Of a stretch of DNA of 64,000 bases, positions 50,033 to 56,490 are shown one piece after another (position 1 is the first letter of the stretch; each line of letters opens with the position of its first letter). Position numbers and translations under genes: made by a program. The stretch lies in NCBI GenBank assembly GCA_963727805.1, contig CAVSHF010000003.1:2112001-2176000 (forward strand), in the 5' to 3' direction. The notes beneath the pieces were generated by a model. It saw only the letters and a program-made list of their open reading frames with translations. It was not told the DNA's origin and searched no databases. The stretch comes from an uncultured Nitrospiraceae bacterium. GTDB lineage: Bacteria > Nitrospirota > Thermodesulfovibrionia > Thermodesulfovibrionales > Dissulfurispiraceae.

Positions 50033-50574
50033 ATGAATAAAAATCTCTTCCCTTTACTGCTGCTTGTATTCGCCGTCGCCATTTTGCTTAATGCAACCTC
50101 CTGCACCCCAACCGCTTCGCTGAGAACGGCCTCTGCAAATCCGGCAGAACTGCGCGGAACCTATCCCGTCTTCCTTTAGGGGGCCCGCCACAGCAACGAT
50201 AGAGAAACAGTCGCCATCCTTGCAAAAGAGAAGTTCTCTTACACGGTTGAGATCTATTCACCCCATTCCAATTATAAGACCATCAAGGGAATGCCCGCCG
50301 ACCAGGCATACGAGAGGGCTGCTGAGTTTGTCAGCTTCCACATGCTTTTGATTACACTGTCATGAGAAGGATCCTTGATGAAAATGGGTCTGTTATCGGA
50401 TATGAAGTGAGGCCCTACTAGAATCATCTTGAATTCGGTCATCCTGATGTCCTCGATGTATCGTACACCCCTGCAGACGGAAAGGTGATAGTCAGGATCC
50501 ACCGGATACCCGCTGTCGAACAATATCTCAGGAACAGGGATAGACGGACTCCTTTTCTCTTCAGGATGAGCTAG
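50033..50574 (+). pseudogene. Lipoprotein pseudogene
   Basis: Own translation: lipobox-like signal (..NATSC), then two in-frame TAG stops and one frameshift near 50340 within an otherwise continuous protein. Confidence 0.65.
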
Positions 50575-51620: not shown

Positions 51621-51726
51621 TCATTTGATCTGACCCCTCATCTCCCCGTCGGGATATTTTTCAGTATGGATATTAATATAATAGTCTCCGTTCGTAAGCT
51701 GCTGGTACAATTCCCAAACTGTTTTA
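51621..51726 (-). pseudogene. CHRD-domain gene, 3' part (separated by IS607)
   Basis: Own translation KTVWELYQQLTNGDYYINIHTEKYPDGEMRGQIK* carries the CHRD Y.N.HT..YP.GE.RGQ motif. Confidence 0.9.
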
Positions 51727-51900
51727 CCGTTCCTAAAAGCATGTGATTTTATATAGTGCCTTAAAAAGGCTTTAATATAGTGATACACTCACATTCGCCA
51801 GCCGAACAGTGTTACTGACTTCCGCCAGATGGTTTCCCTCTGGAACCCGGCGAACCATCCGTAGCGGGTGTAGGCCCTGCCGCTGTGGATAGAGGTACTC
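51727..51900 (-). ncRNA. Putative omegaRNA/reRNA scaffold of TnpB
   Basis: Position overlapping the tnpB 3' end up to the right end; hairpins GATGGTT...AACCATC and GCGG...CCGC; 5' boundary uncertain. Confidence 0.55.
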
Positions 51901-53305
51901 CTCTTGCCGGGTTGCTTGATTGCCGGCTACCTGAGCGTAAGTCCTTTCGGGCTCGCTCAAGCACCCGGGAGACGGCACGCCAATCCGACCAGACATGCTT
52001 CGATCGATTCCTTGCAGGTAGATCGAAGGTGTATCTTAGTCTTCGTGTAGCGAACCGCTCCCCGAAACCGAGACCCCGTCTGGCTATGGCTACTGCCGCT
52101 GCCTGATGCGGGGTTAATTTATATCCTGCCCCGAACTTCACCAATCCGATTACACTGGTGTACGCCGGGTTAATGCCTATCACTTCCACACCTTCCCTGA
52201 ATGCCTTACTAAGAATTAGATTTTTGAATGCCGTGTACGCCATCATCGAAACCTTGCGATTGGACTTACTGCTCCGTCCGGACTTCTTCTTGTCAAGATC
52301 GAGGTTCTCGATTACTATGGGCACCAGGTTGCCTTTGGCATACTGAACTACAGATGCAACTGTGTCTCCAAGTAACGCCGCTATCTGATGCTTCGTCTTT
52401 CCGAAAAGAAGCGTCGGGATGTTCCATGCTTCAGTGGGATTACCGGAGGCGTCGACCCTCGATACCGCGATATGATCTGCGTTCAGATCGAGTCCGAGAG
52501 CCCCGTGCTCTCTGGCGGTGACAGTAGCAACTTCAACCCGTTCCGTAGTCGCATGCACGTACCAGCCCTTGTCTTTACGGACAAACAGATAGCTTATGGC
52601 CTGACCAGCCAGCAGAGCGCTATTAATTATCTCCTGTCCGTGAGGGAAAACAACGGGGACTGCGATATGAGTCCCGAACTCACCGGCCAAAGCATTCGGG
52701 AGTCTCAGCTGCAGTCCCTTGGGTAGATACTGGCAGGTCTGGTTGCCAAACGATTCGTCCTTGCTGCCCAGACAATAGAATTGTGACGCTCTGGCAGACT
52801 GCCAGTCCGCAAGCCATTCAGTATGAGACCCATAACCGTTATCCTTAAGGCTGAATTGCTTTCTGAACAGATTTCTGGAGCCGAAGCAGATGGATGGCGT
52901 ATCAGACTTTGTCCGTTCTTCAAGCACAGACATCTTGTGCTTAAGGTGGGAACCCTGTCGTTTGTATTGGTGTATTTTAAACCAGTTTTTTGGGTTGTCA
53001 TTAAGAGCGGACTTAATGCGTTTAGTAACCGCCTCTAGTTTCCGTTTCTTAGTATCCAGATTACGCAGAAGTGCCTGTTTGTTAGCTTCGACTTTCCCCG
53101 ACAGGTTGAAGATGACACCGTTTAGCTGTCTGCCGGTAATCCCATATCGCTTAAGAAAAGATCGCTTCAGTTCATTGCGATCACCATGTTTAATATACCT
53201 CTCTTTGAAGTAGAGCCGCTCCACCTTGTCCATAAGCGCGGATGTCGCTTCCAAAGCAGGATACAGAGAAGTGTCTTTAATCTTGCCGCAGACGGTTATT
53301 TGCAT
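51812..53305 (-). CDS. tnpB: TnpB-related RNA-guided nuclease (atypical, no Zn ribbon)
   Basis: RuvC-I GLDLN, RuvC-II IVIENL, NPAYTS, then HQAAAVAIARR with no CxxC pairs. Confidence 0.88.
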   Translation of the reverse strand: MQITVCGKIKDTSLYPALEATSALMDKVERLYFKERYIKHGDRNELKRSFLKRYGITGRQLNGVIFNLSGKVEANKQALLRNLDTKKRKLEAVTKRIKSALNDNPKNWFKIHQYKRQGSHLKHKMSVLEERTKSDTPSICFGSRNLFRKQFSLKDNGYGSHTEWLADWQSARASQFYCLGSKDESFGNQTCQYLPKGLQLRLPNALAGEFGTHIAVPVVFPHGQEIINSALLAGQAISYLFVRKDKGWYVHATTERVEVATVTAREHGALGLDLNADHIAVSRVDASGNPTEAWNIPTLLFGKTKHQIAALLGDTVASVVQYAKGNLVPIVIENLDLDKKKSGRSSKSNRKVSMMAYTAFKNLILSKAFREGVEVIGINPAYTSVIGLVKFGAGYKLTPHQAAAVAIARRGLGFGERFATRRLRYTFDLPARNRSKHVWSDWRAVSRVLERARKDLRSGSRQSSNPARGVPLSTAAGPTPATDGSPGSRGKPSGGSQ

Positions 53306-53307
53306 AG

Positions 53308-53885
53308 TTACTCGCTCTTGGCCTCTTGATCCTGCAATGATTGTAATGCCTTCTTCGCTTTATTTTTGGCAGATCGCTTGCCGTAGAGCCTCGCACAAAA
53401 AGAGGTCAGCACCGCGATCATGTCTTCCACCAGGTCATTGGTGAGTTCCGAAGGGTCAACAACTACTAATTTCCTGCCTTGGGCGGCGAGGGCTGACTCC
53501 ACATACTCGGCGCCAAACCTCATTAAACGGTCACGGTGTTCCACTATGATAGTAGTGTACTTCGGGTCGGCAAGCAGCTTCATAAGCTTCGGGCGATGCC
53601 CGTTTAGTCCACTGCCGATCTCGGGACTACCTGATGAATGGCATAACCGTTCTCTGTGCCCCACATGGTGATTCTCGCCACCTGCCCTTCAATATCGTTT
53701 TTCTGGTCGTGTGACGACACCCTGACATAAGCTGCCGTCTGTCCTTGAGCAGACTGAGCCGGGGTAATGATGATCGTCCCCGAGGCAGTCTGATATGCTG
53801 GCACAGGAAGTTGCCCCTTTTTAAACCACAGAAACGCCGTCTGATACTTGATGCCCTGCGATTTTGCCCATTCGCTTAGTTTCAT
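53308..53885 (-). pseudogene. tnpA: IS607 serine recombinase TnpA, frameshifted near 53625
   Basis: MKLSEWAK HTH, YVRVSS.DQ catalytic motif, then a frame break into EIGSGLN, VEHRDRL.RFG, LTSFCARLYG. Confidence 0.92.
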
Positions 53886-53945
53886 ATTGTATATATTAAT
53901 GTATATTACGTATTAAAAACAGCTATCTAATGGCGCTGTTGTAAA

Positions 53946-54320
53946 CCCTTAAACGACGACATCAGGTCCTCTGCTCCGATAGAGCCCTCAGCCAGGGTGC
54001 CGCTTATCTTCCCTTTATTCTTTGCCCTTATAGCAATGAGTGCGATCGGTGGTCCGTTCTCGCCAACCTTGCCTATATAGATGTGGGCGGCTGTGATATT
54101 TTCTAAATCCGAAGCAGTGACAGTGTAAAACAGCAATGTGCATTCCCTACTAAGCGGAAAGGTCGCTTTGCCTTTGGCATCCGTCTTTATTGGAGGAACC
54201 ACCTTGAGCCGCTCATAGTAGCGCTGAGTTCGGGCAGATCTCTAATGTAGCCATACTCAGCCATGCAGACTTCGCAAAAGCGATAATCAGGATAATGATC
54301 AATACAAGTACCTTCCTCAT
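53946..54320 (-). pseudogene. CHRD-domain secreted protein gene, 5' part
   Basis: Signal peptide MRKVLVLIIILIIAFA, VVPP..T.A.G.A.F, ITAAHI..G..GENGP; two extra frameshifts; cut by IS607. Confidence 0.85.
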
Positions 54321-54482
54321 TATTACTTCCTCCTCTGACAATTTTTATCTCAGTATGGTTGCAGCATATCTGGCCACGGCGTGTTAAATACTGGGGAACA
54401 AGTTTCCTTGGTTCCTGCAACATCCTATATATTATTGACATTAGCTTTCTGTCGTTTTAAGATATAACCTAATCGATTTGAT

Positions 54483-54590
54483 ACGCCGAAATCTATAAAT
54501 TATGGATGCGGGGGAACCGGATAACGGGGCGAATTCCATTGTGGATAGGACACTTCCAAGTCCGAGCCCGTCAGCTAACCTCGTAGGCGA
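54483..54590 (+). ncRNA. c-di-AMP (ydaO/yuaA) riboswitch
   Basis: CGCCGAAA...GCGGGGGAAC...GGGGCGAAT...CCGAGCCCGTCAGCTAACCTCGTAGGCG matches the ydaO consensus blocks; lies upstream of kup. Confidence 0.92.
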
Positions 54591-54675
54591 CTGGAAGGCA
54601 ATATGGCAACAATCATTCTTTGCTGGCACTCCGGCATTTTCTTAGTGCCTCTCCTTACCCATCCCGGGAGCGCCA

Positions 54676-56490
54676 ATGCTTGTTAAGGAGTCACCCGCCA
54701 AAGGGATAATCAAGTCACTAGGCCTTGTTTTCGGCGACATCGGGACAAGCCCCATTTATACCCTTACCGTCGTATTCCTGCTCACAAAGCCGACCGCTGA
54801 CAACATCTTCGGCGTCATATCCCTGGTCGTCTGGACCCTGGTCATCCTTGTTACTATCGAATATGCCTGGCTCGCTATGAGTCTCGGGAAGAAGGGCGAG
54901 GGCGGGACTATCGTGCTCAGGGAACTTCTCATCCCATTGCTCAAATCCGGAAGAAAGGCTGCTTTTGTTACATTCCTGTCCTTTATTGGTATATCTCTGC
55001 TTATCGGCGACGGCGTAATCACCCCTGCCATCAGTATTCTCAGCGCCGTAGAAGGTTTGCTGCTGATCCCCGGTCTTGAGAGCACAGCACAGGAAATGCT
55101 GATACTCATTGCGGGGATTATTGCTATACTGCTCTTTTCGTTTCAAAGAAAGGGGACCGAAAAGGTCTCGGTCGCCTTCGGCCCAATCATGATTGTCTGG
55201 TTTGCGGCGCTGGCAGTTTCTGGCGTCTTGTCCATTTTGGAGTTTCCAACCATACTCAAGGCGGTCAATCCATATTACGCCATACGCTTCCTTGTCGAGA
55301 ACGGCATCGCGGGTTTCTTTGTTCTCTCCGAAGTCATCCTCTGCGCAACAGGAGGCGAGGCCCTCTACGCCGATATGGGGCATCTCGGCAGAAAACCGAT
55401 AACCAGGGCATGGTATTTTGTCTTTGTCGCCCTTCTGTTGAATTATCTTGGCCAGGGGGCGTTCGTCATCACCCATCCTGGGAGTAAGAATGTCCTCTTC
55501 GAGATGATCTTCACGCATTTCCGAATATTGTATGTCCCCTTTCTCATCCTGAGCATAATGGCTACGGTAATAGCCTCCCAGGCGATGATAAGCGGCATGT
55601 TCTCGATCGTATACCAAGGTATTACAACACATGTCATGCCCCTTTTTAAGGTCGATTACACATCAGAAGATCTGCGGTCCCAGATCTATATCGGCTTTGT
55701 AAACTGGTTCCTGCTTATCGCTGTCTTGTTCATCATGTATGAGTTCAAGGAATCGAGCCGCCTTGCCGCTGCCTATGGCCTTGCCGTTACCGGCACCATG
55801 ACGCTTACCGGGATTATGATGACTTGGATATTCAGTCTCAAGAAGAACAAACTTTACGCGGCGGCTTCGGCATTCGTGGCGGTTGTCGATGTCGTGTTTC
55901 TGGTGTCCAATATCTATAAAATACCGCACGGTGGCTATTGGTCTATCATCATTGCGGCGATCCCGTTATGCGTAATTATCCTCTATACGCGCGGGCAAAA
56001 GAGGCTCTACAGCACTATGAAACCCCTGGATAAAAAGGAATTTCTCACGCGATTCGAGTGGGCCTACAAGAACATGAGCAGGATAACGGGTACGGCCCTT
56101 TTCTTTGCGCGGGGAATCGAAAAGGTGCCTCCTTACATCGTCAACACGATGTTTTTAAATAATATCCTCTATGAGGACAATATCATTGTCTCTATCATCC
56201 GGAGAGACGATCCTTTCGGAGTCACCGGCTATTTCAAAGACCTCCATGTGGATGGTTTGAGGATATTCGAGATACAGGTCGGGTATATGGAAATGTTCGA
56301 TGTTGAGGAGATACTTCGAGACGCAGGCATAGAAGAAAAGGTCATATTCTATGGCCTTGAGGACATCGATACCAGGAGCATCGTCTGGAAGATATTCTCA
56401 CTGATAAAGAAACTGAACCCCACCTTTGTACAGTTCTACCGGCTGCCGTCTCACAAGCTTCACGGTGTCGTAACCCGCGTCGAGATGTGA
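54676..56490 (+). CDS. kup: KUP/HAK/KT K+ transporter
   Basis: LGLVFGDIGTSPIY, GEGG, GDGVITPAISILSAVEG, TGGEALYADMGH, AYGLAVTGTM. Confidence 0.97.
   Translation: MLVKESPAKGIIKSLGLVFGDIGTSPIYTLTVVFLLTKPTADNIFGVISLVVWTLVILVTIEYAWLAMSLGKKGEGGTIVLRELLIPLLKSGRKAAFVTFLSFIGISLLIGDGVITPAISILSAVEGLLLIPGLESTAQEMLILIAGIIAILLFSFQRKGTEKVSVAFGPIMIVWFAALAVSGVLSILEFPTILKAVNPYYAIRFLVENGIAGFFVLSEVILCATGGEALYADMGHLGRKPITRAWYFVFVALLLNYLGQGAFVITHPGSKNVLFEMIFTHFRILYVPFLILSIMATVIASQAMISGMFSIVYQGITTHVMPLFKVDYTSEDLRSQIYIGFVNWFLLIAVLFIMYEFKESSRLAAAYGLAVTGTMTLTGIMMTWIFSLKKNKLYAAASAFVAVVDVVFLVSNIYKIPHGGYWSIIIAAIPLCVIILYTRGQKRLYSTMKPLDKKEFLTRFEWAYKNMSRITGTALFFARGIEKVPPYIVNTMFLNNILYEDNIIVSIIRRDDPFGVTGYFKDLHVDGLRIFEIQVGYMEMFDVEEILRDAGIEEKVIFYGLEDIDTRSIVWKIFSLIKKLNPTFVQFYRLPSHKLHGVVTRVEM

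Follow-up and report, generated by a model that had tools for sequence, protein, structure and literature searches.

A TnpB of probable RIIIr-4 type with histidine at RuvC-III in a probably stranded IS607-family transposon

Introduction

What does a TnpB do when its RuvC-III aspartate has become a histidine and its zinc ribbon is gone, and why is its gene open beside a broken transposase gene? Both questions are raised by a locus in a 64,000-nucleotide stretch of DNA (the window) from an uncultured Nitrospiraceae bacterium. A preliminary description of the locus, made from the sequence alone, had proposed a nuclease with a rearranged active site, a nickase or an RNA-guided binder, possibly kept under selection after the element had been immobilised. 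We find that the locus is an ordinary stranded transposon and that, as far as the protein's motifs can tell, a histidine in the active site and the lack of a zinc finger are usual in a large TnpB branch described in 2023 and not oddities.

The TnpB protein and its homologs

The tnpB gene (51812-53305, minus strand) encodes a probable RIIIr-4-type protein of 497 residues. The RuvC-I aspartate (D273, in GLDLN) and the RuvC-II glutamate (E333, in IENL) are both present, as had been reported, and the place of the RuvC-III aspartate is taken by H400 within HQAAAVAIARR. CxxC pairs are absent downstream of the PAYTS motif (residues 380-384), and the C4 zinc finger is missing; the Pfam zinc-ribbon model PF07282 (60 positions) was matched only over positions 2-28 and below its cut-off, and the NCBIfam TnpB matches, covering residues 302-386, were below cut-off too. 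In the AlphaFold model (mean pLDDT 84.9) the RuvC core is present, and H400 stands in the first turn of a helix (399-411) in register with the DxNAAxNI motif. The long basic helical insertion noticed earlier in the N-terminal half is a hairpin of two helices (58-102 and 108-133) with 19 K/R against 6 D/E over residues 58-133, and the C-terminal tail falls below a pLDDT of 50 from residue 460 on. Fold searches with the model gave Cas12f, Cas12k and TnpB as the best structural matches (8dzj: Z 14.7, rmsd 4.2, 310 aligned; 8h1j: Z 13.1, rmsd 4.6, 285 aligned), with no D-E-H TnpB standing out among the solved structures. Searching the sequences of solved structures with the TnpB protein gave no significant match, and with a TnpB profile only weak matches to Cas12f and Cas12m (E of at least 0.024).

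A word search with the protein returned 722 proteins at E<=1e-5 (8,000 scored), and the profile was built from 109 of the 120 matches listed, 11 short or overlong sequences being left out. Among these 109 aligned homologs D273 is conserved in 109, E333 in 108 and H400 in 107; none carries CxxC after PAYTS, and the spacing from S384 to H400 is fixed at 17 residues in every one. With a cut-off of E<=1e-30 the profile retrieved 1,712 clusters, and with E<=0.001 it retrieved 5,055. In 144 new, more distant representatives the three residues are again present in most (D in 143, E in 142, H in 135, with aspartate at the histidine position in 4), and CxxC occurs in none of the 125 that have a PAYTS-like motif. 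Two further IS607 TnpBs encoded in the genome served as a control: both carry CxxC pairs, one has the usual HADVNA motif, and their profile scores are about 25 bits. Further acids conserved in the alignment are D183, E184, D336, E374 and E416, of which E374 and E416 are positioned at the flanks of the RuvC core and E184 in the N-terminal half; a different acid might take over the role of the RuvC-III aspartate, but this is not needed to explain the protein. A class-wide DNA search (390 genomes) found fragments only, in 5 other genomes, and of the 67 other genomes covered by a family-wide protein search 5 gave matches.

A major TnpB clade, RIIIr-4, has been described in which the RuvC-III aspartate is changed to histidine and the C4 zinc finger is lost; it is one of five major clades, its activity has been suggested, and altered RuvC-III motifs are found on six TnpB branches (Altae-Tran et al. 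2023, PMC10691335). As characterised in the available text of that study, RIIIr-4 proteins are like the window TnpB in their RuvC-III histidine, their missing C4 zinc finger and their retained RuvC-I aspartate and RuvC-II glutamate, and like the window element in their association with a serine recombinase. We found no defining difference, the peculiarities of the window copy being its frameshifted tnpA and a tail 16 residues shorter than that of most close relatives. The earlier view of an atypical, rearranged active site therefore stands as far as the D-E-H set and the absent zinc ribbon go, but these are traits of a described clade. This comes close to the characterised clade of ordinary activity that had been named as the finding that would overturn it, except that the clade's one screened member was negative for dsDNA activity and its proteins may be nickases or binders. 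RIIIr-4 is said to be found in viruses too (PMC10691335), with which our observations agree: three Thermus phages (PQ109075-PQ109077) encode relatives of about 29% identity, and relatives also occur on plasmids (52 records; 22-46% identity among the rows listed).

A second link to the clade comes from a screen of 59 TnpB orthologs for dsDNA TAM activity, of which 27 were positive and 32 failed (Nety et al. 2023, PMC10278001). Its sole RIIIr-4-labelled entry is ortholog 39, a 529-residue TnpB of Nocardiopsis dassonvillei (Supp File S2), which is like the window TnpB in its right-end motif and in its RuvC-I context, and differs in belonging to an actinobacterial subgroup with RHDAA at RuvC-III. 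The right end AGGAACGG(T) is common to the window element, to ortholog 39 and to a Streptomyces locus (L044), and the right-end primer listed for ortholog 39 starts ACCGTTCCT, which equals window 51726-51734. The Streptomyces TnpB (L044, P0265) comes from a plasmid locus that has this right end and also carries an IS607 tnpA. It shares 28% identity with the window TnpB and was paired with ortholog 39 by eye only; it scores 172 bits on the window TnpB profile against 25 for the two canonical TnpBs of the window genome. We regard it as very probable, from sequence comparison, that the element belongs to IS607 and its TnpB to RIIIr-4. Membership in RIIIr-4 is argued from the shared features and the indirect link through ortholog 39, since the published tree has six branches with altered RuvC-III.

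The element and its insertion site

The element is a 2,219-bp IS607-family transposon (51727-53945, minus strand), delimited by an empty-site joint in run X5 and by end motifs in relatives. Its left end begins TTTACAACAG at 53945 and its right end finishes TTTAGGAACGG at 51727; a GG(T) core is common to both junctions, and there is no target duplication. The same right end recurs with differing flanks in many relatives (L002, L006, L009, L015, L016, L020, L024, L040 and others). In the X5 contig 51725 is joined to 53945, with 2,219 bases skipped and a 3-base ambiguity, and this contig also has extra bases at 54204 and 54271, so that it represents an intact, empty allele of the host gene. That gene encodes a CHRD-domain protein (PF07452) with a hydrophobic N-terminus; its 5' part (53946-54320, minus strand) is separated by the element from its 3' part (51621-51726, minus strand; PF07452 positions 89-117, E=1.9e-9). 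Apart from this split, one base is deleted from the 5' part near 54204 and another near 54271; with an X at both places its frame is open.

Insertion at this site is polymorphic among near-identical strains. In runs X2 and X3, which hold copies of the element at other flanks, 51662 is followed directly by 54427, and the entire CHRD region is missing there. None of the seven other genomes of the genus (79-100% complete) gave a match to the CHRD 5' part. The interrupted host gene is dispensable.

Upstream of tnpB lies tnpA (53308-53885, minus strand), an IS607 serine transposase gene with a 1-base deletion near 53624, which gives 192 residues when read through with X. PF00239 matches both halves, and NF033518 gives 122.6 bits for the C-terminal half (cut-off 110) and 61.9 for the N-terminal half. 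The serine transposase gene ahead of tnpB, the GG core at the insertion and the mobility of the family all place the element in IS607. The well-studied IS607 element CboIStron likewise has a serine TnpA upstream of TnpB, a GG core dinucleotide without target duplication, a G-rich target motif and a right-end RNA scaffold finishing in GG (bioRxiv 10.1101/2023.11.20.567912); unlike CboIStron, the window element gave no group I intron in an Rfam search.

Two neighbours of the element may be mentioned here. A lipoprotein-like gene (about 50034-50574, plus strand) shows in-frame stops and small indels relative to related strains and is a second decayed gene near the element. On the other side, a c-di-AMP riboswitch (RF00379, 94 bits; 54474-54604, plus strand) precedes a KUP-type potassium transporter gene (PF02705; 54676-56490, plus strand).

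Predicted RNA and mode of action

A putative omega-RNA scaffold (51727-51960, minus strand) overlaps the tnpB 3' end and is predicted from folding and partial covariation. The last 234 nt of the element fold with z=-3.23, none of 200 shuffles being as stable, and changes on both sides of a pair are seen for 6 of the 34 pairs predicted, in an alignment of 8 partly redundant sequences (4 from one error-rich data set) from which the structure itself was derived. Sequence conservation ends at the right end of the element, and Rfam holds no match to the predicted RNA region. By analogy with CboIStron, the guide is predicted to be the host sequence just beyond the right end (51707-51726, minus strand), which matches the empty CHRD site. 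At the left junctions of relatives a purine-GG followed by T was seen by eye in 9 of 11 related loci among those listed, from which we predict a purine-GG TAM, here AAGGG (53946-53950, minus strand). A remnant of a related element elsewhere in the genome (L002; G000 C5:1241232-1241512) consists of the right end and the predicted omega-RNA only, 78% identical and with a different flank, and may be a stand-alone guide RNA.

Taken together, we moderately favour a reading in which an IS607 element with a broken transposase has inserted into a CHRD gene at a GG site, its RIIIr-4 TnpB serving as an RNA-guided nuclease against the empty site. The omega-RNA would arise by transcription running from the 3' end of tnpB out into the flanking host DNA, and the TnpB-RNA complex would locate the empty insertion site beside the predicted purine-GG TAM. 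There H400 would replace the last metal-binding aspartate, so that D273, E333 and H400 cut the DNA, and a cut at the site vacated by the element would favour the element's restoration. This proposal for restoration draws on IS607 studies with a canonical TnpB: TnpB-driven retention has been shown for CboIStron (bioRxiv 10.1101/2023.11.20.567912), whose CboTnpB, unlike the His-type TnpBs, is a proven dsDNA cutter. That a D-E-H TnpB cuts DNA at all is slightly better than an even bet. Among RNase H-like enzymes, histidine is known to serve in catalysis (PMC3985635).

The same element and clade might instead work without double-strand breaks, which we consider a serious if distinctly less probable alternative. 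Here the protein would nick DNA, cut RNA or ssDNA, or only bind the empty site, and the His-type TnpB would aid the transposon otherwise, perhaps by blocking TnpA or by steering it. Ortholog 39, the one tested member with a DNA result in the literature searched, had a clear RNA processing site and a 466-nt RNA but was negative in the in vitro dsDNA TAM screen, whose authors speculate that such proteins act on other substrates (PMC10278001). Within the literature free of subscription, PMC10691335 and PMC10278001 were the only papers bearing on tests of RIIIr-4 that we found, no report of DNA cleavage by RIIIr-4 was found, and the available text of a 2026 review does not mention the RIII clades (PMC13565253). 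However, the negative result concerns a single protein, assayed with its 466-nt RNA in a single in vitro screen in which 32 of 59 orthologs failed (PMC10278001). Against the alternative also stand the near-invariance of the aspartate and the glutamate together with the histidine, and the catalytic use of histidine in RNase H-like enzymes already mentioned. Active Argonautes with a final histidine exist as well. If the alternative were right, the RIIIr-4 TnpBs would form a distinct RNA-guided class (nickase, RNA or ssDNA nuclease, or binder) maintaining IS607 elements without double-strand breaks, a view that we put forward only tentatively. Intact relatives (for example L006 and P0267) together with the window locus allow a direct test of D-E-H TnpB function, and the window element is a useful test case in having mapped ends, a real empty allele and a predicted purine-GG TAM and guide.

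The fate of this copy

The proposal that tnpB has been kept under selection since the element was immobilised is not supported. By length alone, one indel would fall in tnpA rather than in tnpB with P=0.27; the insertion is polymorphic; the reverse pattern, an open tnpA beside a frameshifted tnpB, is seen in L011 (a single contig and possibly an error); and no second target of the guide exists in the genome (16 nt with at most 1 mismatch; 20 nt with at most 3). The suggested dN/dS comparison gave 0.08-0.11 for the tnpB core in four of five relatives (L013 gave no value), with dS saturated (above 1), and 0.03-0.09 for tnpA in three of three comparisons, again with saturated dS. These low ratios show purifying selection on both genes of the mobile family; they do not show it for the window copy itself. 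A promoter scan remained at chance level (7 against 4.2+/-2.3).

The gene is uninterrupted over its 497 codons, as described, but the genes of most close relatives (513-514 aa) run on for 16 codons more. The lost part falls in the low-confidence tail, and a 97% identical relative (P0266) ends at the same place, whereas a 96% identical one (P0267) does not; we therefore take the early stop as a probably tolerated variant and not as proof of decay. In relatives P0002-P0013 and P0267 the lost 16-residue tail (window 51764-51814, minus strand) is Cys-rich (HCSAGxCxC); the region overlaps the predicted RNA, and the tail is not retained in most distant homologs.

Decay of either gene is widespread in the family. 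TnpA is entirely absent from L007, L009, L020 and L040, and internal tnpB deletions occur in L020, L040 and the X2 and X3 contigs. Such non-autonomous derivatives either lack tnpA or have lost most of tnpB with both ends kept (joints 51858/51859 to 53273 in X2 and X3). In X2 the depth over right-end pieces rises to several hundred, which suggests high-copy miniature elements there. Neither the decay argument nor the dN/dS values draw on the many loci of the Ga0182022 metagenome that are rich in frameshifts, which are probably read errors.

Could the host nevertheless have domesticated tnpB after tnpA broke, for RNA-guided regulation or for defence? We consider this quite improbable, and think it likely that no domestication has taken place. 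In its favour, tnpB is open and all three indels of the locus lie outside it, in tnpA and the host gene (P=0.068), although the host indels may predate the insertion. Of amino-acid changes, 8 are private to the window TnpB, and all of them avoid the positions conserved in at least 90% of homologs (17% of the total; by hand, P is about 0.22), while its two sister copies have 2 of 9 and 1 of 11 at such positions, a difference that is not significant. Indel placement and private changes lean weakly towards continued constraint on tnpB; the tnpB differences common to X2, X3 and X5 (at least 5, among 40 of 577 listed: 3 silent, 1 residue change, 1 early stop) are too few and too selected to use. 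The right-end remnant in the genome could in addition provide another guide. Against domestication, near-identical strains have an empty site or no CHRD region, the CHRD 5' part was not detected in the seven other genomes of the genus, the guide lacks a second target, and copies without tnpA, with a frameshifted tnpB or with internal deletions are common.

The comparison with known exapted TnpBs points the same way. TldR-type proteins are alike in combining a TnpB fold with an altered RuvC site, yet they are not known to have the intact ends and the two canonical catalytic residues that the window copy retains. A TldR-like protein would be non-mobile with a guide target in trans, whereas the window TnpB lies inside intact ends at a polymorphic site, keeps its aspartate and glutamate, has no conserved host context and has no second guide match in the genome. 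The simplest reading of the locus is that of a stranded passenger, and most likely the window copy is just that, its tnpB not yet having been hit.

The frameshifts

Stranding presupposes that the frameshifts reported in tnpA and the host gene are genuine, and the 1-base deletions near 53624, 54204 and 54271 are indeed found again outside the window assembly. Over 53510-53757, 53783-54225 and 54211-54717 the X1 contigs show neither a difference nor a gap relative to the window; they cross all three sites, and the frameshifts are therefore not simple consensus errors, with the reservation that X1 (depth about 4) may be the source sample, so that its independence from the window assembly is not given. 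The extra tnpA base is present in X2, X3 and X5 and absent from X1, and tnpA lies in a single frame in L003, L006, L008, L011, L013 and L044.

A sequencing error in tnpA, which would have removed the argument from retention altogether, is thus not what the X1 contigs indicate, and the tnpA frameshift is probably real. Single-base deletions are typical long-read errors, and the extra base in X2, X3 and X5 fits an intact, active element misassembled here, but we regard this as scarcely credible given the X1 contigs, the status of X2, X3 and X5 as other strains (about 95-97% identity), and a window genome rated 100% complete in which the two other IS607 tnpA genes are open.

Mobilisation in trans by these two other TnpAs appears unlikely from their sequences, since they are 41% identical to that of the window and the left ends of their elements look different. 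The two canonical IS607 elements concerned (G000 C3:305937-307833 and C3:2009859-2011710) each have an open tnpA of 199 aa, and the TnpB of the latter is without the C-terminal RuvC-III motif.
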